32,000 bases of DNA. Source: Candidatus Lokiarchaeum ossiferum (GTDB lineage: Archaea; Asgardarchaeota; Lokiarchaeia; Sigyniarchaeales; Promethearchaeaceae). The position numbers and the translations under genes were made by a program. Below are positions 9,808-32,000 of the stretch, piece after piece. How positions within the stretch are numbered: position 1 is the first letter of the stretch; each line of letters opens with the position of its first letter. The stretch lies in contig CP104013.1 in NCBI GenBank assembly GCA_025839675.1, positions 180,001 to 212,000 on the forward strand. Reading direction: 5' to 3'. A model generated the notes under the pieces. It was not told the DNA's origin, ran no database searches, and worked only from the letters and a program-made list of their open reading frames with translations.

Positions 9808-10161
9808 TCAAGAAACTAAAATATTAACCGATTTTTTATGATCTGGATATTGAAATGGCAAAGTTTCATACATAAGGAAAAGGTTATCCAATTCATTCTC
9901 CAAATAATGATCAATAAAATGAAGATCTATTAAAATGGAATACAATTGGTAAAGGACCCCATTAATAGGAATATATCTTGCAAATTCGATGTTGATATTT
10001 GCCATATCGGAAATCTTCAAAGTTAAGTTTGGTGTTATTGCTCTATTTAGAAGAAGGAAGTTATCTTCTTTTCTTAAAAATAGGGGATAAAAAAAGGGTG
10101 CTCGAGTTCTTCTTGAATCTGTTTCAATGATATAATTCATCGATGTTTGATTCCTTTTCAT
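9808..10161 (-). CDS. hypothetical protein, overlaps the 3' end of the radical SAM gene
   Basis: 117-aa ORF on the same strand as the upstream radical SAM gene. It overlaps that gene by 38 nt, or by 17 nt if the MNYIIETD start at 10140 is used. No recognisable motif. Confidence 0.3.
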   Translation of the reverse strand: MKRNQTSMNYIIETDSRRTRAPFFYPLFLRKEDNFLLLNRAITPNLTLKISDMANINIEFARYIPINGVLYQLYSILIDLHFIDHYLENELDNLFLMYETLPFQYPDHKKSVNILVS

Positions 10162-11662
10162 CGGAATTAGTCTGTTTTGGTGACTGAAGTATTATTATTT
10201 CTTCGTTTAACTCGTCATTAATTGGAGGAATTGCGAAATGTTTCTTTTTTCTAATAAAAAGCTTTTTAATTCTATCGAGATATTTTTGTTGGCCTTTCAC
10301 CCATTTCTTGTTCAATTTATGGGCATACAGACCAATAAATAAACTGATTAGATTTCCTCTAATGAATCTACGAAAAACGTTACCAAATTTATAAAATTGG
10401 TCATGAGCCATTATTTGGGTTTGTTGTAAGTCCCAGAGTGAAAACTGCTTAGGAATGAAATTAACATGGTGGGTATCGTATTTCTCCCAATTCTGCTCTA
10501 ACAATCTATTCTCTTCAATCATTTGTTTAAAAAATCCTGTACCTGGTAAGGGAGTTAAAATTAAAAACTGAGCGCTGCCAATTTTAGATTTTATCGCAAA
10601 ATCCACGGTGCTTTGTGTTGTTGCGATATTATCACTATCGAACCCAAACACAAACATACCATGAATGTGAATTCCACGTTTTCGAATTTCTTTAATGCCA
10701 AATTGAATATCTTGAATGGATTGTGCTTTCTTCATTTCTTTCAAAGCTTCAGGGTTGACTGATTCAATTCCTATGAAAAGTACCATACAACCTGATTCTT
10801 TCAGGAGATCCATTAGTTCGGAATCTTTAGCGATATCAATCCTTACTTGTGTTACCCATTGAAATAATCCTCCAAATTCCTTCTGGTGAGAAATCATAGC
10901 TCTCAACAATTGTTTTGTACGGGTTTTGTTGGCAGAAAAATTGTCATCGTAGAAAAACAAAATATCTTTTTTAGGATTATAGCGTTTCATTTCACTTATT
11001 ATACTTTCAACGGATCTAAATCGGAATTTTTTTCCAAACATTGAGGTAACTGAACAAAATTTACAATTGAAAGGGCATCCTCGACTCGCTTGGATTGGAA
11101 TGGTCATTTTTCGTGTAATACCATTGTATGCTTTACCTCCATTATCAAGTAAAGAAAAATCGGGAAAAGGAAGACTATCTAAATTCTCGATGGGCCGACA
11201 TAAATCATTATGAGTAATTTCGCCCTTATTTATCCAAGAAAGGGAGGGAACTTCCTCAAGGTGCATATTATTATTTAATTCAGAAACAAGTTTCGGTAAG
11301 GGAATTTCGCCTTCACCTCGAATAACAAAATCGCAATGATCCAAAGCTTCATTAGGAAGGGCGGTTACGTGTGGACCTCCAAGAACTACGGGTATCCCTT
11401 TTTCCCGAAAATAATCGGCTAATCTAAAGGCATAAGTAATGGTGGGAGTGATTGAAGAAATGGCAATTAAATCTGCGTCAAGATTTCTCTCAATGATTTC
11501 GTCGGTTTTTAAAAAATAAGCTTCAACCAAATAGCCTTCTTGCTTCATTATTGTAGCCAATAACACCGAACCTAATCGAGGAAGTTCAAATTTGGAATAA
11601 ATGTGTAAATTCTCAGTTTTTGGTTCTAAAAAGATAATTTTTTTAATTGACATAAAGATCAC
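10124..11662 (-). CDS. B12-binding-domain radical SAM protein (class B)
   Basis: N-terminal Rossmann-like cobalamin-binding region (DLIAISSITPT...GIPVVLGGPHVTALP) followed by the radical SAM cluster motif SRGCPFNCKFCS (CxxxCxxC). Confidence 0.85.
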   Translation of the reverse strand: MIFMSIKKIIFLEPKTENLHIYSKFELPRLGSVLLATIMKQEGYLVEAYFLKTDEIIERNLDADLIAISSITPTITYAFRLADYFREKGIPVVLGGPHVTALPNEALDHCDFVIRGEGEIPLPKLVSELNNNMHLEEVPSLSWINKGEITHNDLCRPIENLDSLPFPDFSLLDNGGKAYNGITRKMTIPIQASRGCPFNCKFCSVTSMFGKKFRFRSVESIISEMKRYNPKKDILFFYDDNFSANKTRTKQLLRAMISHQKEFGGLFQWVTQVRIDIAKDSELMDLLKESGCMVLFIGIESVNPEALKEMKKAQSIQDIQFGIKEIRKRGIHIHGMFVFGFDSDNIATTQSTVDFAIKSKIGSAQFLILTPLPGTGFFKQMIEENRLLEQNWEKYDTHHVNFIPKQFSLWDLQQTQIMAHDQFYKFGNVFRRFIRGNLISLFIGLYAHKLNKKWVKGQQKYLDRIKKLFIRKKKHFAIPPINDELNEEIIILQSPKQTNSDEKESNIDELYH

Positions 11663-12577: not shown

Positions 12578-13765
12578 TTAGATAATGCTTAATTTTTTGC
12601 CAACTTTTTCAATGGAGGCTAAGGCTTGGTCCAAATCTTCTCGAGTTAAGGCAGCATTCATTTGAACTCGGATACGTGATAATTCACGGGCAACCATTGG
12701 GAAGACAATTGGAGTACCATAGATATTTTCTTCACGGAATAATATATCGGCTAATTGCTGGGATTTACCCGGATCTCCTACTATTAGAGGTATGATCGGT
12801 GTGCAGGAATTACCCGTATTAAAGCCTAGGGCTTGGACTTTTTCTCTAAAATAGGTTGTATTTTCCCATAACCGTTCAACAATTTCTGGTTCATTTTCAA
12901 CCACAGAGATTGCGGCATCGGCGGCTGCAACAACACTTGGAGGATGGGCAGTACTTAACAAATAGGATCGACTTTTATTGGTGACAAACTCACATAAATC
13001 TTTAGAACCAGCGACAGTTCCTCCGAAACACCCGAAACCTTTGCTTAAGGATCCTCCTTCAACATGAACTTTGCCTTGTAATCCAAAATGAGCAACTATT
13101 CCTCGTCCTTTGCCTAACATTCCTTCCCCATGGCAATCGTCTACATAGATCATAGCGCCATAAGGTTCACAAACTTTAGTTATTTCATCAAGGGGGGCCA
13201 TATCTCCATCCATGGAAAAGACTCCATCTGTAATCACTAAAATTCTTCTTGCTCCTGCGGCATCGGCTTCTTTTAAAACGCTTTCCAAATCGGAGGCATC
13301 ATTATGTTTGTAAACACCTCGTTTTGCTTTGGTTAAGCGAACCCCATCAATGATAGATCCATGATTGAGAGCATCCGATATAACATAATCTTCCTTTCCA
13401 ACTAATTGTGGAATTACTCCTTGATTCACAGCAAATCCAGTTTGACATAACAAGGAGGCTTCAACTCCTTTAAATTTAGCGAAATGTTCTTGGAATTTCT
13501 TTGTTAAATCAAAAGTTCCAGCAATTGTTGGCACTGCGCCTGCCCCCAAACCATATTTATCTAAGGCATCTCGAGCAGCTTGAACCACTTTAGGGTGAGT
13601 TGCTAATCCTAAATAATTATTTGTGTTTAGCATGAGGACTTTTTTTCCATCTACAGTTGAGTGTGGTTTAGATCCTTCTTCTAAATGGCGAATAACCCAG
13701 TTAAGATTATTGTCATAGAGATTCTTAACTTCGGTTCCGAGAAAATTTGTGGGATTTCTTGTCAT
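12578..13765 (-). CDS. kbl: 2-amino-3-ketobutyrate CoA ligase (glycine C-acetyltransferase), PLP-dependent
   Basis: Resembles Kbl/AONS family members along its full length. Blocks include DALNHGSIIDG, VFSMDGDMAPL, YVDDCHG and SLSKGFG (PLP lysine). It is divergently paired with a tdh gene. Confidence 0.85.
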   Translation of the reverse strand: MTRNPTNFLGTEVKNLYDNNLNWVIRHLEEGSKPHSTVDGKKVLMLNTNNYLGLATHPKVVQAARDALDKYGLGAGAVPTIAGTFDLTKKFQEHFAKFKGVEASLLCQTGFAVNQGVIPQLVGKEDYVISDALNHGSIIDGVRLTKAKRGVYKHNDASDLESVLKEADAAGARRILVITDGVFSMDGDMAPLDEITKVCEPYGAMIYVDDCHGEGMLGKGRGIVAHFGLQGKVHVEGGSLSKGFGCFGGTVAGSKDLCEFVTNKSRSYLLSTAHPPSVVAAADAAISVVENEPEIVERLWENTTYFREKVQALGFNTGNSCTPIIPLIVGDPGKSQQLADILFREENIYGTPIVFPMVARELSRIRVQMNAALTREDLDQALASIEKVGKKLSII

Positions 13766-17108: not shown

Positions 17109-17429
17109 ATGGAAGAGAATTCAATACATAAAATTATTAAATTATTACAAAATCTACCTAAAGATTTTCAAAAAAATAACATTAATGTGCTTTCAGAGAT
17201 TTTTGGCTTATTAGAGCATTTAGAAACTGTATTCGATAAACATTATCAAATTTCAAAGCCTTCGACGCATTTTACTTCAAGAAGTGAAACAACTTCCAAT
17301 ATACCTCAAATTTCAGTTCAATCAAATGCTGATGCTCAGAAGTTACAAAAAGATTTATTAAAATATTTACGCCGGACTCGTAGTTCTATGGTTCGAATAG
17401 ATCATAAGAAAATTATAGAGGATCATTAA
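17109..17429 (+). CDS. hypothetical protein
   Basis: 106-aa ATG ORF followed by a T9-C4 tract (17464-17476). No recognisable motif. Confidence 0.3.
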   Translation: MEENSIHKIIKLLQNLPKDFQKNNINVLSEIFGLLEHLETVFDKHYQISKPSTHFTSRSETTSNIPQISVQSNADAQKLQKDLLKYLRRTRSSMVRIDHKKIIEDH

Positions 17430-18709: not shown

Positions 18710-20842
18710 ATGGCTTCCGAAGAAAATAGAAAATCAAAATACTTTTTAAAACAAGAAGCTAAACGTTTAAAAGACGAAGAAAGGCGTCGGAAGAGCTTGG
18801 AAAAAAGCGAAGCTCGATTACGGAAAGAAATGGCCCGAGATGATAAAAGAAATAAAAAAAATCGGCAAAAAATTCTGTCTTCCGAACCTTCAAGAAATAA
18901 ACCAATCGATACGAAAGTAAATAAAAAAAAAAAGGAAAAGACTAATAAATCTTCATCAGGATTCCAAAATTCTCAAAAAAGAAAATCTAAGAAAGAACAA
19001 CCTAAGAAAGAACAACCTAAGAAAGAAAAACCTAAGAAAGATAAACCTAAGAAAGATAAACCTAAGAAAGAAAAACCTAAGAAGGAAAAACCTAAGAAAG
19101 AACAACCTAAGAAAGAAAAACCTAAGAAAGAAAAAGCTAAGAAAGAAATATCTAAGAAGGAAAAACCTAAGAAAGAAAAACCTAAGAAGGAAAAACCTAA
19201 GAAGGAAAAACCTAAGAAGGAAAAACCTAAGAAGGAAAAACCTAAGAAGGAAAAAGCTCCGAAATCAGTTAAAGTGAATAAACCAAGAAAGAAAAAACAT
19301 GCTGCCAAAGACCAGATTCTTAAAGAGATTACTTATGAAAAAACAGTCCAAACAGAAATATTAAGCCATAGATCGAATAAAAAAAGAAAATCTCTCCCTT
19401 CTCCATTATCAAATCCACAATATCAACCAAAACCTCAAAAAATCCAGAGTTCAAGGAAGCCTGAACCCAAAATTTCCGGATTTACATTTGCAACGGAATT
19501 AAAAAATGATAAAATAAATTTTACTGATACTATTAAAGCTAAGTTCATCATAGCTAACAACGGTTATCTTCAAGATACGGATCGTATCTTATATAAAATA
19601 TACATGGTAAATTCTTCTGAAGAAGTTTTTCTTCTCAAAATTGGTTTAAAATCCTTTAAACGTAATTTAAAGCTATCAATTTCCACTAAATTTTCTAAAA
19701 TTATTCCTCCAACTCCCTTCTTTAATTTTAGGATTGAATTATTTTCACATCGGAAATTAATTGCTAGCTACGATGGGGAAGAAATAAAAGTCGATGATAT
19801 CAAAGCTGAAAAAAATATTAAAATTCAATCCATTGATATTGTTTCAAACGTCATTATTCCCAAAAATCCTCTGATCTTCTGGCTTAAATACACATATAAA
19901 CCTATTCCTCGGGCTAGAACGGTAGAAATGCAAGTTTCTTTATCATCTCAAAATTTGAATTTAGAAGAAAATACCTATGAATTGGAACTTGGAGATTCTT
20001 CCCATAAGGGTAATGATTCACAAATAATTCCATTTTCGTTTAATATTCCTGAATTTACAGATGAGAAAGAAAAATTGAAATTTAATGTTTCTATCATGGA
20101 TGTAGAATCACAGAAGACTCTTTTTTCAAAAAATTTGTTGATCAATGGAAAATCTTCACTAATGGGGTTACGGTATGAACACATTGGATACAAACGTGAT
20201 ATAAAAATTGGAGAGACTGCTTATATGGTGGCCGATTTAATCAACAAAACACCTTATAAAGTAAAAGGAAAAGCAACATTTACTTTTTTCACAGTTTTAT
20301 CGGAAAGTGTCAAATGTTTCTCTCGAAAATTCCGAATCCGTCCGAATAATTATGATAAAATCTCAGAGGATATAACTCTTACTGAAGATCTCGGAGGAAA
20401 AAAGATGTGGGTGATTGTTCGCTCCAAATTTAAGACAAAAAGAGGAAAAATTTTACTTGAGGGCATGTCCAAACAAATAAATCCAAGAATTAATAATTCA
20501 CCTCATTTTATTGCAAAAATTCGGGCAGCAATCCATGCTGATGGTGTATACTTTAATGATATAATTACAATTGGGATTGACACTCGGATTCGTACACGGG
20601 ATAAATTAAAGCATGCAATTTGTGAAGTGGTTCAAAATTTTGAAAATATAGATATAAAACCGATTCACACCTTCAAAATAAAAGATTTGGAATCATTTCA
20701 TAGTAATTTTCATTGGAAGGTACCACCAAAATATGGTCAATGTACCCTTGATGTGCGATTTTATGTAAACGGATTACGAGTGCTTGATGAAAATATTGAG
20801 AAGAGCCCTCTTACTTTTGATTTATACCCAAAACCAAAATAA
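18710..20842 (+). CDS. large basic protein: about 210-aa Lys-rich N-terminal region with KPKKE pentapeptide repeats, plus about 480-aa beta-rich C-terminal region
   Basis: Long uninterrupted ORF with no signal peptide or TM segment. The N-terminus is rich in charged residues (EERRRKSLEKSEARLRKEMARDDKRNKKNRQK) and is followed by the repeat block. The C-terminal part looks like three or four beta-sandwich modules of about 110 aa, judged only from alternating hydrophobic patterns. Confidence 0.6.
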   Translation: MASEENRKSKYFLKQEAKRLKDEERRRKSLEKSEARLRKEMARDDKRNKKNRQKILSSEPSRNKPIDTKVNKKKKEKTNKSSSGFQNSQKRKSKKEQPKKEQPKKEKPKKDKPKKDKPKKEKPKKEKPKKEQPKKEKPKKEKAKKEISKKEKPKKEKPKKEKPKKEKPKKEKPKKEKPKKEKAPKSVKVNKPRKKKHAAKDQILKEITYEKTVQTEILSHRSNKKRKSLPSPLSNPQYQPKPQKIQSSRKPEPKISGFTFATELKNDKINFTDTIKAKFIIANNGYLQDTDRILYKIYMVNSSEEVFLLKIGLKSFKRNLKLSISTKFSKIIPPTPFFNFRIELFSHRKLIASYDGEEIKVDDIKAEKNIKIQSIDIVSNVIIPKNPLIFWLKYTYKPIPRARTVEMQVSLSSQNLNLEENTYELELGDSSHKGNDSQIIPFSFNIPEFTDEKEKLKFNVSIMDVESQKTLFSKNLLINGKSSLMGLRYEHIGYKRDIKIGETAYMVADLINKTPYKVKGKATFTFFTVLSESVKCFSRKFRIRPNNYDKISEDITLTEDLGGKKMWVIVRSKFKTKRGKILLEGMSKQINPRINNSPHFIAKIRAAIHADGVYFNDIITIGIDTRIRTRDKLKHAICEVVQNFENIDIKPIHTFKIKDLESFHSNFHWKVPPKYGQCTLDVRFYVNGLRVLDENIEKSPLTFDLYPKPK
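18983..19267 (+). repeat. 18 in-frame copies (plus one degenerate) of a 15-bp unit AAACCTAAGAA(A/G)GAA encoding K-P-K-K-E
   Basis: Direct reading shows units differing only at 1-2 positions (CAA/AAA, GAA/GAT, AAA/AAG, CCT/GCT/TCT). The last six units are nearly identical. Confidence 0.95.
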
Positions 20843-21227: not shown

Positions 21228-21454
21228 ATTTCTACTTCAATTTTCTCCAATACTTCCTATTTGATCAACAATTTTAACAATAGTTACAATAAATGCAATT
21301 CTATTTGAACTTAATATTATTTAAGAAAATTTAGTTAAGATGACTTTTGTGTTATATTTTTTCTACAAACATTTAAATATCTACGTTCGCTTATTAATAT
21401 TAGAATCGAACGTATTGAAAAAATTATTATTTTCAATACTTATGGTGAAAAAAA

Positions 21455-21532
21455 ATGAAAAAAAAAAACATAAAAAATAACAATTATCGCTTAGCCTACA
21501 ATTACACAACTGATTTACGTACCATTGCATAA
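21455..21532 (+). CDS. mini-ORF copy 1: MKKKNIKNNNYRLAYNYTTDLRTIA
   Basis: Hand translation, TAA stop, then T8. The upstream region is not part of the repeat but is AT-rich (ATTATTATTTT about 30 nt upstream). Coding status is unproven. Confidence 0.35.
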   Translation: MKKKNIKNNNYRLAYNYTTDLRTIA

Positions 21533-21566
21533 TTTTTTTTAAAATCACATAAGGAGAAATCAAACA

Positions 21567-21644
21567 ATGAAAAAAAATAACATGAAAAATAACAATTATC
21601 GCTTAGCCTACAATTACACAATTGATTTACGCACCATTGCATAG
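21567..21644 (+). CDS. mini-ORF copy 2: MKKNNMKNNNYRLAYNYTIDLRTIA
   Basis: TTTTAAAA at 21537-21544 starts 30 nt upstream of the ATG. AAGGAG lies 11-16 nt upstream. TAG stop followed by T8. Confidence 0.35.
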   Translation: MKKNNMKNNNYRLAYNYTIDLRTIA

Positions 21645-21678
21645 TTTTTTTTAAAATCACATAGGGAGAAATCAAACA

Positions 21679-21756
21679 ATGAAAAAAAATAACATAAAAA
21701 ATAACAATTATCGCTTAGCCTACAGTTACATAACCGATTTACGCACCATTGCATAG
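21679..21756 (+). CDS. mini-ORF copy 3: MKKNNIKNNNYRLAYSYITDLRTIA
   Basis: Same architecture: TTTTAAAA at -30, GGGAG 10 nt before the ATG, then TAG followed by T8. Confidence 0.35.
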   Translation: MKKNNIKNNNYRLAYSYITDLRTIA

Positions 21757-21790
21757 TTTTTTTTAAAATCACATAGGGAGAAATCAAATA

Positions 21791-21868
21791 ATGAAAAAAA
21801 ATAACATAAAAAATAACAATTATCGCTTAGCCTACAGTTACACAACCGATTTACGCACCATTGCATAG
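21791..21868 (+). CDS. mini-ORF copy 4: MKKNNIKNNNYRLAYSYTTDLRTIA
   Basis: Same architecture as copy 3. Confidence 0.35.
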   Translation: MKKNNIKNNNYRLAYSYTTDLRTIA

Positions 21869-21902
21869 TTTTTTTTAAAATCACATAGGGAGAAATCAAA
21901 CA

Positions 21903-21980
21903 ATGAAAAAAAATAACATAAAAAATAACAATTATCGCTTAGCCTACAGTTACACAACCGATTTACGCACCATTGCATAG
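21903..21980 (+). CDS. mini-ORF copy 5: MKKNNIKNNNYRLAYSYTTDLRTIA
   Basis: Same architecture, identical to copy 4. Confidence 0.35.
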   Translation: MKKNNIKNNNYRLAYSYTTDLRTIA

Positions 21981-22014
21981 TTTTTTTTAAAATCACATAG
22001 GGAGAAATCAAACA

Positions 22015-22092
22015 ATGAAAAAAAATAACATAAAAAATAACAATTATCGCTTAGCCTACAGTTACACAACCGATTTACGCACCATTGCCTAG
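22015..22092 (+). CDS. mini-ORF copy 6: MKKNNIKNNNYRLAYSYTTDLRTIA
   Basis: Same architecture. It carries a synonymous GCC in the last codon, and the TAG stop is followed by T7 and A6. Confidence 0.35.
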   Translation: MKKNNIKNNNYRLAYSYTTDLRTIA

Positions 22093-22238
22093 TTTTTTTA
22101 AAAAACTGCACATAAACATATCTGGTATACAAATTTAGATATTATACACTACTCATAGTTTAAATTTTCATTTATTCTTACTATTCTTATTCTTTAAATA
22201 AATTAAAAAATCAAACAACTATTCCATCTTTTATATTT

Positions 22239-22982
22239 ATGTTCTATTTATTGAATATGATAAGGGACACTCAATATTTTCAGACTTGGAATTCTCCAAA
22301 TTATGGATATGCTAAACGTTCTTTTGATCTTCCAATTCTCCATGTAATTGGTCTTGTTGGTTCAGGAAAAACCTTTTTTATAAAGAAATTCTTTTCCAAT
22401 GTCCCAACCTTTGATATCAAAAAAATTTATGAAGATTTTGGATTTTCACCCGAAGATTTACATAAACAACCAGAAAAATATTCCCAGTTTCAAAGCGCAT
22501 TACAAATAAATTTTGAGAAATTTCTTGCTTTTGTTAAAATGGAAAAATTTCCGATTGTTTTAGTAGAATCATCAGGCATAAATCAAGCTTTGAATCAGAT
22601 ACTAAATCAATACAATAATTATAGAATATGGATAAAAGCTGATATTTCTAGAATAACTTCTCTTAACATCTATACAAATAGACCTTATGCAAAAAAATTG
22701 AATGAACATATGCTAGGTTTAAGAAAAAATCGGAAAATAATTTTCAATAATGAGTTTGATCTCAAATCACTGGAGTTTTCAAATTCATTACCTCCGATTC
22801 TTAAGTCAGATTTAAATCCATTTAAAGCTAAAAGGCCAAATCCAGAAAGGGACAATAAAATGCAAGATTTTCGTAAAAATGATCGCTATCATTGTCCAAA
22901 TTGCGGAGCTAATTTTGGTAGAAGCAAATTATTAGAATTACATTTTTCAAGATCAAAAACGTGTCAAAAAATTTTGGGTTAA
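22239..22982 (+). CDS. P-loop NTPase/kinase-like protein with a C-terminal classical-type (C2H-C) zinc finger
   Basis: Walker A is GLVGSGKT and Walker B-like is PIVLVESSG. The C-terminal YHCPNCGANFGRSKLLELH (22887..22964) fits (F/Y)-x-C-x2-C-x3-F-x5-L-x2-H, with the fourth ligand probably the Cys seven residues on. Confidence 0.5.
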   Translation: MFYLLNMIRDTQYFQTWNSPNYGYAKRSFDLPILHVIGLVGSGKTFFIKKFFSNVPTFDIKKIYEDFGFSPEDLHKQPEKYSQFQSALQINFEKFLAFVKMEKFPIVLVESSGINQALNQILNQYNNYRIWIKADISRITSLNIYTNRPYAKKLNEHMLGLRKNRKIIFNNEFDLKSLEFSNSLPPILKSDLNPFKAKRPNPERDNKMQDFRKNDRYHCPNCGANFGRSKLLELHFSRSKTCQKILG

Positions 22983-23107: not shown

Positions 23108-23626
23108 ATGAAACGGATAATGATCATCGGTTGTGCAGGATCAGGAAAATCAACTCTGGCTTCTAATTTGGGAACAACATTGAATTTACCGGTCTATCAC
23201 TTAGATAAAGTATTTTGGAAACCAAATTGGGTAAAGATATCACCTGAAGATTGGCAGCAATATATATCAACTATTATCCAAAAAGAATCTTGGATAATCG
23301 ATGGAAATTATTCAAGCACAATGGAAATTCGAATGCGTCGTGCAAATATTATAATTTATTTAGATTTTCCTCGTTTTTTTTGTCTCTGGCGTGTAATTAA
23401 GCGACGATTTCAGTACAATAACAAGTCTCGACCGGATATAAATGACCAATGTAATGAAAAACTTGACTTGGAATTTCTTAAATGGGTATGGAATTATCCC
23501 AAACGCTCTAAACCAAAAACGATGCAATTATTGGAGCAGTGTACAAAAAATCACATTATTTTTCATATTACCAAGAAAAAGCAATTACTAAACATTCAAG
23601 AAAAAATTTTGAATCTCTTTTTTTGA
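23108..23626 (+). CDS. adenylate-kinase-fold P-loop protein of the topology-modulation (FlaR-like) family
   Basis: RIMIIGCAGSGKSTLA, PVYHLDKVFWKPNW, WIIDGNY and IIYLDFPRFFCLWRVIKRR match the family pattern as I recall it. Confidence 0.75.
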   Translation: MKRIMIIGCAGSGKSTLASNLGTTLNLPVYHLDKVFWKPNWVKISPEDWQQYISTIIQKESWIIDGNYSSTMEIRMRRANIIIYLDFPRFFCLWRVIKRRFQYNNKSRPDINDQCNEKLDLEFLKWVWNYPKRSKPKTMQLLEQCTKNHIIFHITKKKQLLNIQEKILNLFF

Positions 23627-24186: not shown

Positions 24187-24432
24187 TTATAATAATGCCT
24201 TCTTAGGAGGACATCCATGCATATCTCGAATTTTACATTTTTCTTTAGTAGAACTGCCTTCACACATTGCACAGTCTACATCTCGAAGCATTTGAACAAT
24301 GGCATCTTCTTGGCGAGGTACTACATCTTTTTCATCAGCAAGCATTTCATCATCTAATTCATCAAGGTCTTCTTCGATAAATTCGGGACCATCTTCTTCT
24401 TCTTCTTCGATCTCAATTTTTTTCTTGGCCAT
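24187..24432 (-). CDS. small highly acidic protein with a C-terminal Cys4 cluster (hypothetical)
   Basis: I prefer the internal start MAKKKIEIEEEEEDGPEF... (81 aa) over the track start at 24522. The C-terminal pattern is C-x2-C-x9-C-x7-C (CAMCEGSSTKEKCKIRDMHGC). It lies on the same strand as the ferredoxin, just upstream of it. Confidence 0.4.
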   Translation of the reverse strand: MAKKKIEIEEEEEDGPEFIEEDLDELDDEMLADEKDVVPRQEDAIVQMLRDVDCAMCEGSSTKEKCKIRDMHGCPPKKALL

Positions 24433-28487: not shown

Positions 28488-31400
28488 TTACATATTTTGG
28501 GAAGAATCGGACTGATCTTCATCAAAAACCTCGATTTTTTCTTCTTCATCTATAAAAGAAACTTCCACTTGGTCTGGTTTCATAGATTTTTTATCATCAT
28601 CATGTGAATTTGACTCCATGGTGAGATTATTGTTTTGCCATCCTTTCTTTTTGACGAGATATGAAGCAACGAAAGCTAATCCTATTGAAACACCGATAAT
28701 TCCTCCAACTATGGCGTATGGAATTAATTTAGAAATTAAAGCTGAACTAAACATCTGAGTCGATATTACATTTCCATAAACATCCAGTATCATAATGATA
28801 AACCGCAGATTCGAATCCATATTTTCTAAATCATTTAAAATAATTTCGCATGAATCTTGACTATTATCATAAATTTGGGTATAAGTTTTCCAACCTTGTC
28901 CTTGGGAATATAATATTTGAATCTTCTGGATGGGGTTTTCATCTGAAACATGTAAATTGATTTTAAAAAGCATATCATCAGTGTCATCCTTTTGCGAATA
29001 TTGATAGGATTGAATTTGTGGTGTATAAACATCCCTATAAAGGGTATCATTTGAGTAGTATTTGATTGGTATGTTTTCAAGAACCAATGTGTCTGCGGAC
29101 ACAGAAACGCTGTCATACATCCCCCATAAACGACAATCACCAAAATAGGAATTCTTCACTCTCGCAATTTGCAATTGGTAAGTGATGGATAGAGTTCCGA
29201 CTTCCAATTCGGAAATGAACATATTTAAACCCGAAGTGGTAACCTCTAATGTCGTATTAATTACTTCATCATTCATCAAAAAAACTAAAGAATTTTCAAT
29301 ATATGATGCACCTGCGGGGAATGAATCACTAAAGGCATAATACTGTCCGATTTCTCCATTATTTTGAATTGTTATGGAAATGTTTACAATATCTCCTGGT
29401 AATAATAACTCGTTTGATTCAATATCTTTCCTAAGAGATAGAGATGATTCGGATGATAAAGGCTCTAATAAAGGTGAATTTGTTTTTAAAATATGGTGAT
29501 TTCTTGAATTTTGAGATTCTAAAGGCAGAGTATTAGTACTGACTTCCACATTAATAGGGCCGATTGTTTTTCGTAAGGCTTGTTGACTTTGGCAACCTTG
29601 ATCTGTTCGATTGTAAATTATTGTGGCTCTAATTATCATTTGATCTATTTCATAATCCCCAGTTGTTTGTGGAGCTTGTAACGTAAATACTACCTCACTA
29701 TCCGATTCTATCAATGAAAAATATTTCTCATAATCAATATCTTTTAATTTCATTTCTTCCGGAATTCCCTGTAATGCAACCGTAACATCTTTCATTGGAA
29801 TTCTAGAAGTAATATCAGAAACAATCATAGAAACTTCAAATTCTTCTCCAGGTTGAACAATTATAGCTTTATTAGTGTTAATCGTTGGGTTTGCTCTAAT
29901 GATTTGTTTTTGTGAAAATACATAAGAAATTTGCCCTTCACCTTCAAGATCTATTCTAATATTATTTGATTTCAAATTTGTGTTGGGAATTCTAAGTAAA
30001 ACATCATTCAAATCAATTGAGGTATTACTAACAGCGATTTTTTTAAAAGGTTCTAAATCATCACTAATATAAATTGAGATATTCCCGTCAAACTTAATTA
30101 TCTCATTTGTACTGGCAAATGACTTCAAATTTGTCAAGCTTGTAATTGCTGCGGCCGTATCAGCAGTACTGCTCCAACCCCATTCATTTTTCTCATTTAG
30201 CAAATATTCAATTGATTTTTGAATTATTGAAAAATGATCCAAATATCCATCTAGCGCCAGAGCCCAAACACAATAGGAGGTGATCTCAACATTATTACCA
30301 AGATTTCTCCAATACCACCCAATACGGCCTGGATTGCTCCAATAGACAGTTCCATCCTTTGTATCACGCTCTAACAGAATATAATTAATTAAAGTGTCAC
30401 AAAATGCAGTATTTTCAAAGCTCGAATTTTTAAATCCAAGATAATATAAGGCTGCCCCAAATGGACTTTGGTTATCGGCTGTTCCCCATAAATTTTGTAG
30501 TGCAATATTGGCTTTTTGAATCGCTGTTGAAAGCGTTGATGTTAATGTTGGAGCAGAAAGTAAAGCTTTTGAAATATACGCTGTAGATTCAAAAAGGTTA
30601 GAGCTTAAGTATTCAAACATCCATGTACCATCACTTTTTTGATTCCCAAGAATGAAGTCAATAGCTTTCGAAAATACACTTTCACTAATTGAAAAACCTG
30701 CTGCATCAATTTGATATAGAGCAGAAAGAACTATCGCAGACATTTGAACTCGCGAGTTATCGTCAAACCACCATCCCCACCCTCCATCACTATGTTGAAA
30801 TCCATAAATCCGATTTAGACCTTCGAAAATCATTTGAGTCATTTCCTGCTGTTGTGTAGAAGAAAGCATATTATTATCTTGAAGATATTTATAAATTTTT
30901 GCCGTAGGAAGCAATTTAGACATGGTTTGCTCTACACACCCATACGGGTAACCAATGAGTGATTCCCAAGAGTCGATTGAGATATCCATTAAATCTGTAT
31001 AAAGTGCAATGGTTTCTTTATTGTAAATGCTTAAGGGATCAACAGTAAAATTAATTTGCGTCGAACCTAAAGTTGCATTCAAAAATCCTTTGGTAAAATT
31101 GATAAGTTCAAGACCATTGGGTTGTACATAAATATTCATAAGTTTAGCATCCGAGTAGACTTGGCCAGATATATTCGTCGCAGCTAATAAGGTTATATTA
31201 TTCATATAGGGATTTTCACAGTACAAAGAAAACTCAATTTCTGCGACATAGTCTTTCGGCACTAGTATTTGTTGGACTTCATTATTTAATACTGCAAATC
31301 CAGGCGCATCTATAGCCACATAAACATGAGTTGCTTCTTCCAAATAATTGTGTACATAGCCTTTAACTGATAAAATATCATCCTGATAAATTGGTTCCGC

Positions 31401-32000
31401 AATATCAAATTCAATGAAAAAGGGAAGATATGTTTTAATTTGAATGGTCTGAATTTCTCCCCATAACAGATTTCCTTCTTGGTCTGAATCATAATGATTT
31501 CCCACCGCACGAATTGTCCATTCCCCAATGTTATCAGGTAATTTAAATGTAAAATCAGTTGATTCCGTAATAATCAGGCTTGGGATCCAGTTTGCAGATT
31601 CCGATATGTTTTTTCGAATTTCTGTTTCAAAATTTGATAATAAATCATTAAAGCTTGGAGGTTCAATAGCTCGTTCCCCACCTTTTTGACTATTGGCATC
31701 ATCTGCCGCATAATCTGAAACCATTTCCATTGTATCATCAACAAAATATCTGTTCGGTATATAGATTCCTCCAGTGGAAGATCCATACCCAATCCACCAA
31801 TAACTTTCAGCACTAAATCCGGATCCCCATGAACTCCCGGAACCAATATAGGCATAATATGAAGATTGAGTGAAGTAGGCAAGTTCTGAATCATCCTCGG
31901 GCTCCACATCTAACACCGAACTATCAATAAATGAGAGTGATACAAGGGTTGGATGATTATCATTGGGAGATATTGTCAACGTTATCGTATCTCCCGGTTC
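28488..32000 (-). CDS. alpha-2-macroglobulin-family thioester-containing protein, C-terminally membrane-anchored; 5' end lies outside the window
   Basis: The thioester motif YPYGCVEQT was verified by hand at 30927..30950 (GCVEQ = 30927..30941). The A2M block is IRKNISESANWIPSLII...FKLPDNIGEWTIRAVG, and the TED-like block is QHSDGGWGWW. The C-terminal TM is LIPYAIVGGIIGVSIGLAFVASYLV, followed by an acidic tail. The reading frame is still open at 32000 (the track start at 31979 is a TTG). Confidence 0.85.
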   Translation of the reverse strand, partial: EPGDTITLTISPNDNHPTLVSLSFIDSSVLDVEPEDDSELAYFTQSSYYAYIGSGSSWGSGFSAESYWWIGYGSSTGGIYIPNRYFVDDTMEMVSDYAADDANSQKGGERAIEPPSFNDLLSNFETEIRKNISESANWIPSLIITESTDFTFKLPDNIGEWTIRAVGNHYDSDQEGNLLWGEIQTIQIKTYLPFFIEFDIAEPIYQDDILSVKGYVHNYLEEATHVYVAIDAPGFAVLNNEVQQILVPKDYVAEIEFSLYCENPYMNNITLLAATNISGQVYSDAKLMNIYVQPNGLELINFTKGFLNATLGSTQINFTVDPLSIYNKETIALYTDLMDISIDSWESLIGYPYGCVEQTMSKLLPTAKIYKYLQDNNMLSSTQQQEMTQMIFEGLNRIYGFQHSDGGWGWWFDDNSRVQMSAIVLSALYQIDAAGFSISESVFSKAIDFILGNQKSDGTWMFEYLSSNLFESTAYISKALLSAPTLTSTLSTAIQKANIALQNLWGTADNQSPFGAALYYLGFKNSSFENTAFCDTLINYILLERDTKDGTVYWSNPGRIGWYWRNLGNNVEITSYCVWALALDGYLDHFSIIQKSIEYLLNEKNEWGWSSTADTAAAITSLTNLKSFASTNEIIKFDGNISIYISDDLEPFKKIAVSNTSIDLNDVLLRIPNTNLKSNNIRIDLEGEGQISYVFSQKQIIRANPTINTNKAIIVQPGEEFEVSMIVSDITSRIPMKDVTVALQGIPEEMKLKDIDYEKYFSLIESDSEVVFTLQAPQTTGDYEIDQMIIRATIIYNRTDQGCQSQQALRKTIGPINVEVSTNTLPLESQNSRNHHILKTNSPLLEPLSSESSLSLRKDIESNELLLPGDIVNISITIQNNGEIGQYYAFSDSFPAGASYIENSLVFLMNDEVINTTLEVTTSGLNMFISELEVGTLSITYQLQIARVKNSYFGDCRLWGMYDSVSVSADTLVLENIPIKYYSNDTLYRDVYTPQIQSYQYSQKDDTDDMLFKINLHVSDENPIQKIQILYSQGQGWKTYTQIYDNSQDSCEIILNDLENMDSNLRFIIMILDVYGNVISTQMFSSALISKLIPYAIVGGIIGVSIGLAFVASYLVKKKGWQNNNLTMESNSHDDDKKSMKPDQVEVSFIDEEEKIEVFDEDQSDSSQNM

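Follow-up and report, generated by a model that had tools for sequence, protein, structure and literature searches.

The stretch of DNA analyzed here (the window, 32,000 nt, positions 180,001 to 212,000 of contig CP104013.1 from Candidatus Lokiarchaeum ossiferum) carries a tandem array of six very short open reading frames (ORFs) between the genes for an S-adenosylmethionine (AdoMet) decarboxylase and a P-loop nucleoside triphosphatase (NTPase). Tandem Repeats Finder reports a head-to-tail 112-bp repeat at window positions 21450-22104 (5.8 copies, 96% matches, no indels, score 1205), and a 39-nt core of the unit occurs six times, compared with 0.00 expected in shuffles. An earlier note on this DNA had placed six ATG codons 112 nt apart, at 21455, 21567, 21679, 21791, 21903, and 22015. 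Each of these positions proved correct and opens a 25-codon ORF, which ends in TAA (unit 1) or TAG (units 2-6), the two stops that the note had named. No gene has been called in this gap in any assembly, and the ORFs are too short for gene callers. The array is composed of the following features.

21455..21532, plus strand: unit 1 ORF, MKKKNIKNNNYRLAYNYTTDLRTIA; orthologous to unit 1 of a second complete genome, CP163304.1 (L007)
21533..21566, plus strand: first 34-nt spacer, which repeats every 112 nt up to 22014
21533-21540, plus strand: T8 in the first spacer, an oligo-T terminator signal that runs into AAAA (the T/A octamer at -30)
21553-21556, plus strand: GGAG, the Shine-Dalgarno (SD)-like core in the first spacer
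21567..21644, plus strand: unit 2 ORF, MKKNNMKNNNYRLAYNYTIDLRTIA
21679..21756, plus strand: unit 3 ORF, MKKNNIKNNNYRLAYSYITDLRTIA
21791..21868, plus strand: unit 4 ORF, MKKNNIKNNNYRLAYSYTTDLRTIA
21903..21980, plus strand: unit 5 ORF, peptide identical to that of unit 4
22015..22092, plus strand: unit 6 ORF, peptide as in units 4 and 5, with GCC in place of GCA as last codon; ortholog of L007 unit 7
22093..22099, plus strand: final T7 tract after unit 6, with no unit beyond
22108..22158, plus strand: start-less pseudogene, a remnant of a second peptide type (type B), AHKHIWYTNLDIIHYS and stop; aligns to the last type-B unit of a related locus (L009)

Most of the fine structure described in the earlier note was also recovered, with two corrections. 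The octamer TTTTAAAA begins exactly 30 nt before each internal ATG and likewise before tRNA-Ser (9621). The listed variants are all present, namely the replacements K4N, I6M, N16S, T18I, and T19I and the synonymous changes ACT/ACC, CGT/CGC, and GCA/GCC, and the 34-nt spacer has only the two variable sites that were claimed. However, the T8 said to follow every stop codon directly does so in units 1-5 and is T7 in unit 6, and the GGGAG said to precede every ATG is found in units 3-6, while unit 2 has AAGGAG and unit 1 has GGTGA. In the type-B remnant at 22108-22158, an in-frame TAA lies immediately upstream, there is no start codon, and an otherwise invariant arginine is lost.

The array is not an artefact of assembly, a possibility that the earlier note had raised, since Logan short-read contigs and the second complete genome both agree with the window. 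Contigs from several Logan runs match the window at 100% and end exactly at the first and last unique 31-mers of the array edges, 21496 and 22059, so that both junctions are independently confirmed. The Logan contigs SRR32148621-25 were considered as possible transcriptome evidence and dropped. Their left ends coincide with the first unique 31-mer and their right ends lie in a (TCT)n microsatellite at 24392-24408, which explains the pattern and leaves it no proof of an RNA origin.

Relatives of the array were sought by synteny, in the gap between the AdoMet decarboxylase (AdoMet_dc) gene and the P-loop gene. Units were found in four genomes, namely the window (six), L007 (seven), L009 (four), and L036 (two), giving 19 units with 15 distinct sequences. 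The gap of CP163304.1 is 112 bp longer than that of the window and holds its seven units in the same place, at about 264,970-265,736, and the P-loop proteins of the two genomes are 98% identical. At the L009/L010 locus (ENA ERZ26802894), the P-loop protein is 79% and the AdoMet_dc DNA 85% identical to the window, and at the L036/L037 locus (ERZ23491059 / GCA_029935835.1), the corresponding values are 70% and 78%. The syntenic neighborhood comprises genes for the AdoMet decarboxylase, a ferredoxin, the P-loop NTPase, which carries a C2H2-type zinc finger at its C terminus, and a kinase-like protein of the FlaR ("DNA topology modulation") type. The peptides encoded in the L009 and L036 gaps are as follows.

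L009 gap, four units (2+2 of types A and B): MKNQHIKNKTSRLAYSYSTDLRTIE; MNNKHIKNNTYRLAYTYSTDLRTIA; MKIKSNTKIAHKHIWHQHIDLRSIA; MKNKHHKKVVHKHIWHNNFDVRYYS
L036 gap, two units (1+1 of types A and B): MNIHKVKKTNYRLAWMNSTDIRTIA; MKLTNLKKPNHDHIWHHHRDLRTIA

Comparing the units, two paralogous types can be distinguished. Type A ends in YRLA[YW]xxSTD[LI]RTIA, and type B ends in HxHIWHxxxDLR[ST]IA. The concerted evolution proposed in the earlier note is supported by the two complete genomes: the edge units are orthologous between strains, the inner units are homogenized, and there are six copies in one and seven in the other, which together form the signature of unequal recombination. In the simplest history, the ancestral locus between the AdoMet decarboxylase and P-loop/zinc-finger genes would have contained a single gene of each type. 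Both A and B would then have been duplicated in one lineage, and in L. ossiferum type A would have been amplified to 6-7 near-identical copies through unequal recombination of the whole 112-bp cassette. The start-less remnant in the window shows that type B was lost in L. ossiferum alongside the amplification of type A, and this loss beside amplification hints that the two types overlap in function.

Searches beyond these loci returned no further members. No units are present at loci with an AdoMet_dc at 66-72% or a P-loop protein at 43-53% identity, and the codon-degenerate pattern YRLAYxYxxDLRT gave 0 matches in GTDB species genomes and 0 in JGI metagenomes. A looser pattern of the unit architecture (GGAG, 8-12 nt, ATG, 25 codons with D-x-R, stop, T5) matched seven times in the species genomes and 14 times in the metagenomes. 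All of these matches were single, lay in unrelated bacteria or metagenome contigs, and had in-frame stops or unrelated peptides, and they were rejected as chance. The pattern scan of viral contigs gave 0 matches. At the protein level, a concatenated A+B peptide query shared no words with any of 5.8 billion proteins. The peptides had no match in Pfam, NCBIfam, or PDB, except for a sub-threshold hit of Pfam HBS1_N (E = 0.17) to unit R4 of L009. A survey of the literature on small proteins, promoters, and transcript maps in Lokiarchaeum and Asgard archaea returned nothing on this locus.

As a separate observation, the ENA sample ERZ26802894 contains two distinct Lokiarchaeum-like AdoMet_dc alleles on separate contigs (L009 and L039), 90% and 91% identical to the window, so that the sample holds at least two coexisting, related populations. 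Contig L039 stops 24 nt past the AdoMet_dc gene, short of any array.

The comparison with relatives provides several lines of evidence that the units are translated. The ATG, a length of exactly 25 codons, and the stop are kept in 19/19 units (17 in the window, L007, and L009, and two in L036). The frame-breaking indels or internal stops that the earlier note named as a sign of a satellite or RNA gene are absent from all of them. Frame, length, start, and stop are retained at 30-55% nucleotide divergence, and of the six frames, the proposed one alone is stop-free in all eight diverged units. In a neutral simulation at the observed divergence, start, frame, and stop stayed intact in 0.3-3.5% of the more diverged units and in 13.5% for W5/R2, the closest cross-species pair, and about 0% of units were intact and also retained D-x-R. 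In the W5/R2 pair itself, 9/13 differences fall at third codon positions (p = 0.009). Across five pairs (four orthologous between lineages and one paralogous, R3/R4), the ratio of nonsynonymous to synonymous differences (pN/pS) amounts to 0.30-0.49 for the entire ORF and to 0.17-0.40 within codons 11-25, below 1 as the earlier note had expected of coding sequence. Likewise, the invariant Arg22 is written CGC, CGA, CGT, AGA, or AGG, and residue 21 of the D-[LIV]-R motif (positions 20-22) is written TTA, CTT, CTC, GTT, or ATA, including synonymous first-position changes.

The same data bear on the view that the array is non-coding, consisting of small RNA genes, a DNA satellite, or protein-binding repeats in which the ORFs arose by chance. 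The promoter-like and terminator-like A/T tracts in the units would fit this view, as would ORFs below gene-caller size that are called in no assembly. However, it leaves unexplained why the frame is maintained at such divergence, the excess of third-position changes, the pN/pS below 0.5, and the five codons used for Arg22. Moreover, the sense RNA is unusually unstructured, folding worse than 199/200 shuffles (z = +2.2), and Rfam has no match to the array at the gathering threshold or at E <= 1. The earlier note had judged coding plausible and an array of small non-coding RNAs equally open; the first part stands and is strongly favored by the relatives, whereas the second is disfavored by the fold z-scores and Rfam, and we regard the non-coding explanation as largely refuted. 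Minus-strand ORFs of 57-60 aa were also considered as real genes and rejected, because they are broken in L009. We conclude from these comparisons that selection acts on the predicted translated peptide; independent lines of evidence all point this way, although the numbers are small because the ORFs are tiny.

Within the peptide, the N-terminal 10 residues are variable (pN 0.21-0.55) and the C-terminal 15 are conserved. By this measure, selection on the predicted peptide is shown to be strongest over its C-terminal 15 residues. The conserved module has an aromatic residue or histidine at position 11, fixed Y/W15, D20, R22, and [IY]24 in both types, and a T/S-I-A end. The N-terminal third, variable as its sequence is, always contains 59-81% adenine at the nucleotide level and mainly keeps the start region unstructured. 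The peptides have a net charge of +3 to +5, a mean Eisenberg hydrophobicity of -0.10 to -0.32, and a hydrophobic moment not above that of shuffles, and contain no transmembrane or significant amphipathic segment, cysteine, double-glycine site, or signal sequence.

These properties help to weigh two further explanations. The earlier note had suggested that the units encode precursors of a ribosomally synthesized and post-translationally modified peptide (RiPP) or a signaling peptide. Such a peptide could be secreted, and the maturase would be encoded elsewhere in the genome. Near-identical multicopy short ORFs do resemble some RiPP precursor arrays, such as those of prochlorosin (procA) and the cyanobactins. 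Potential modification sites are plentiful in the conserved segment, which has many Tyr, Ser, and Thr residues in type A and many His and Trp residues in type B, and a gene for a B12-binding radical SAM protein is present in the window at 10124-11662. However, this gene is 10 kb away, past unrelated housekeeping genes, and searches with Pfam, NCBIfam, and PADLOC revealed no radical SAM/SPASM protein, YcaO, lanthionine synthetase, ATP-grasp protein, peptidase, or ABC exporter within ~9 kb to the left or right. The syntenic locus of L009 likewise has these unrelated neighbors. The part that would serve as the leader, the N terminus, is the variable one, and the C terminus is conserved instead; the missing cysteine, double-glycine site, and signal sequence point the same way. 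With no modifying enzyme, protease, or exporter nearby, the precursor suggestion found no support, and we consider it quite unlikely.

Similarly, the array could be a tandem system resembling type I toxin-antitoxins, with a toxic peptide in each unit checked by an antisense RNA from the opposite strand. Tandem cassettes of whole small ORFs are known from ldr/rdl, ibs/sib, and zor/orz of Escherichia coli, which encode hydrophobic membrane toxins paired with antisense RNAs. These are head-to-tail mini-genes (promoter, short ORF, terminator), as the array units would be, and their copy number likewise varies between strains. On the minus strand of the array, T8A4 reads T4A8 and the A-rich 5' third of the ORF gives T6-T8 runs, which makes an antisense RNA of ~50 nt architecturally possible. 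The array peptides are, in contrast, hydrophilic and basic and lack a transmembrane or amphipathic segment, and an antisense partner is not evident: the antisense RNA folds no better than shuffles (z = +0.9 and +0.4), and beyond low-complexity A/T sequence no conserved antisense promoter was detected. A toxin-antitoxin function is very unlikely on these grounds.

Expression of the array was analyzed from the sequence flanking and separating the units. A leader of ~85 nt upstream of unit 1 is strongly conserved in all lineages, and sequence further upstream is unalignable. It contains the following features.

21372..21379, plus strand: canonical archaeal TATA box TTTAAATA (8/8 consensus), invariant or TTTATATA in all four genomes
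21383..21413, unstranded: palindrome ACGTTCG-N17-CGAACGT, which spans the predicted transcription start; candidate operator for a regulator
21412..21439, plus strand: 5'-untranslated region (UTR) hairpin GTATTGAAAA / TTTTCAATAC, just before the first ribosome-binding site
21444..21448, plus strand: GGTGA, SD-like motif of unit 1, 6 nt before the ATG

The TATA box is the sole canonical one of the array locus and would place the start of transcription near 21402, with a 5' UTR of ~53 nt. The palindrome occurs once in the window (shuffles predict 0 copies), and among the 43 loci examined it recurs only in L007, L009, and L036, each time at the corresponding position. It tolerates a C-to-T change, which permits a G-U pair in RNA and breaks the symmetry of the DNA. 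The hairpin has a folding energy of -9.7 kcal/mol (z = -2.2), and six to ten pairs are kept in all species, including one compensatory pair. Overall, the leader looks like a regulated promoter with a 5' UTR.

Every ATG is preceded at 6-11 nt by GGAG or GGTGA. The internal units have GGAG at 10-11 nt, and GGAGA is invariant across the spacer alignment (10 units from three genomes). At the first unit, the motif is GGTGA in L007 and L009 and AGGT in L036. Assuming a canonical archaeal anti-SD sequence, GGAG at 10 nt and GGTGA at 6 nt share one register on the rRNA. Among ordinary window genes, such SD-like motifs occur at about the background rate (9/22 versus 28%), and two reviews describe SD motifs as not prevalent in Lokiarchaea (PMC12993045, PMC7531240). 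As an aside, two window genes, 12578-13765 (minus strand) and 17109-17429 (plus strand), pair an SD-like GGTG/AAGGA near -10 with a good TATA-like octamer at -28/-33, and this combination, which the array units share, may be more widespread among the gene starts of this genome.

At the other end of the units, a tract of T6-T10 lies within 0-11 nt after every stop, including the last unit of each array (T8 in L009, T6 in L036). Because the tract also follows last units, which have no further unit downstream, it is better explained as a terminator than merely as a TATA box for the next unit. No bacterial-type promoters or hairpin terminators above background were found.

This arrangement of stop codon and T tract raises the possibility that the 25-mers, instead of being end products, act in cis as nascent-peptide sensors in the ribosome exit tunnel. 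A pause at the stop codon beside the oligo-T would then set termination or read-through, in the manner of TnaC or the arginine attenuator peptide (AAP), serially before the P-loop/zinc-finger gene, and the acting parts would be the aromatic residue at position 15 and the invariant C-terminal D-x-R-x-I-A at a fixed length. TnaC and the fungal AAP, both of 24 aa, are arrest peptides of similar size with C-terminal conservation, and together with the MAGDIS peptide of the AdoMetDC upstream ORF they share a transcript with the gene that they control and are encoded ahead of it. The array resembles these systems in peptide length (~24-25 aa), in C-terminal conservation with an aromatic residue at a fixed distance (here Y/W at position 15), and in the termination signal directly after the stop. 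The constant 25 codons of all 19 units of both types also fit this reading. In addition, the SD motifs imply translation on a longer, leadered RNA. Unlike in those systems, what comes after each ORF of the array is another copy, and the gene downstream is equipped with a conserved promoter element of its own: TTTTATAT lies 28-30 nt before the ATG of the P-loop gene in three lineages, with no SD motif, so the gene has no need of read-through from the array. Copy numbers of 6, 7, 4, and 2 would also be odd for a calibrated attenuator, and a single ligand would hardly suit two types whose middle segments differ. An arrest or attenuator function thus appears unlikely, both on copy number and on the promoter of the downstream gene. 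If true, it would represent an archaeal counterpart of TnaC- or AAP-type attenuation, serially repeated, in an Asgard archaeon.

As for transcription, the earlier note had read each unit as a self-contained transcription unit that yields a leaderless mRNA. The T/A octamer is found at -28 to -30 in all internal units, a geometry shared with the neighboring SD-less P-loop gene and with tRNA-Ser, which makes a leaderless transcript from each unit geometrically possible. The absence of an SD motif together with TTTTATAT suggests that the mRNA of the P-loop gene itself is leaderless. On the other hand, the SD-like motif in every unit speaks against a leaderless mRNA, which would not contain one, and the TATA positions of 22 ordinary window genes follow no clear positional rule. 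Independent leaderless units are plausible; the most economical reading is leaky termination, possibly with some weak internal initiation. In such a scheme, the locus would be driven by the promoter and leader that precede unit 1, which are conserved and probably regulated, each cistron would be translated from its own SD-like motif, and the oligo-T tract after each stop would end many transcripts there. The T/A stretch may double as a weak TATA box from which the following unit is transcribed without a leader, and the outcome would be many short mRNAs.

Overall, our analysis favors, with a probability of about 0.75, an array of real protein-coding mini-genes for a basic, hydrophilic microprotein of 25 residues, belonging to a Lokiarchaeum-restricted family of two paralogous types. 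Concerning its role, we see an even chance that the peptide stays in the cytoplasm, acts in trans, and binds an abundant partner, either a protein or a nucleic acid, through the conserved aromatic...D-L-R-T-I-A tail. Binding to such a partner would be stoichiometric, and tandem amplification would simply raise the peptide dose.

Several points weigh against this interpretation. Given the small size of the ORFs, each statistic is based on just 13-28 substitutions per pair, and the family occurs in three lineages only, always at the one syntenic locus. Database searches returned no partner, domain, or homologue that would hint at a function, and the proposed trans-acting binding role rests on composition and on the apparent demand for a high dose. 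With regard to expression, the internal T/A octamer matches the TATA consensus at only 6/8 positions, no better than background in AT-rich DNA, and a strong T7-8 terminator after the stop and an SD motif before the next ATG are partly contradictory signals.

Coding mini-genes of this kind can be compared with other known small-protein genes. Archaeal microproteins (below ~70 aa) include sP26 (23 aa) and sP36 of Methanosarcina mazei and the zinc-finger microproteins of Haloferax volcanii, all encoded by single-copy genes. The array shares with them free-standing, tiny, unannotated ORFs, amino-acid conservation among close relatives, and presumed binding to a partner. However, there is no sequence relationship, and the array cassette is amplified 6-7-fold and falls into two paralogous types. 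In Drosophila, the tarsal-less/polished rice gene has several tandem ORFs of 11 aa with a common C-terminal motif on a capped eukaryotic mRNA that lacks terminators between them. Near-identical tiny ORFs in tandem, a conserved C-terminal motif, and a higher peptide dose per locus are common to both; this is an analogy only, without homology, and the array, unlike the fly gene, has T tracts between its ORFs. Microprotein genes and tandemly amplified small-ORF cassettes are thus already known in kind. What is new here is a family without detectable relatives outside one genus and the unusual arrangement of tandem mini-cassettes in an archaeon.

Additional features were noted in the neighboring genes. 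The gene downstream of the array (22239-22982) probably starts at ATG 22257 rather than 22239, since its orthologues begin MIKN..., and encodes the P-loop NTPase fused to a C2H2-type zinc finger (PDB 1mey_C, E = 7e-4, residues 215-235). More distant Lokiarchaeial P-loop homologues, of 184-190 aa, are without the zinc-finger tail. The gene at 23108-23626 encodes a 172-aa protein that passes, with 227 bits, the NCBIfam cut-off of PRK08118 ("DNA topology modulation protein"), a family named from bacteria and found here in an Asgard archaeon. Near the 5' end of an 81-aa minus-strand gene lies the microsatellite mentioned above, (TCT)5.7 at 24392-24408. Short-read contigs of several runs stop in or just past it (24396, 24405, and 24416), which may reflect length heterogeneity in the cultures. 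Elsewhere in the window, a 15-bp unit is repeated 18.6 times at 18978-19255 within the ORF 18710-20842 (plus strand), encoding (K-E-K-P-K)n in a 710-aa protein without a family match. Its orthologue in CP163304.1 has 724 aa, so that the length differs between strains, and the L009 contig begins inside a similar 15-bp repeat. Finally, a gene that runs off the window at 28488-31979 (minus strand) encodes a giant alpha-2-macroglobulin-like protein with TED, A2M, and MG2 domains, which has 2056 aa in full contigs.

L. ossiferum, one of only a handful of Asgard archaea in culture, is used as a reference organism for questions on the origin of eukaryotes, and its annotation misses the array locus completely. 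For a family that is invisible to gene callers, the comparative evidence for translation is about as strong as sequence data can make it. The significance of the finding is moderate until a partner or phenotype of the microprotein is found. Meanwhile, the array locus offers a natural test bed in Lokiarchaea for the use of SD motifs, the behavior of oligo-T terminators, and possible leaderless promoters.

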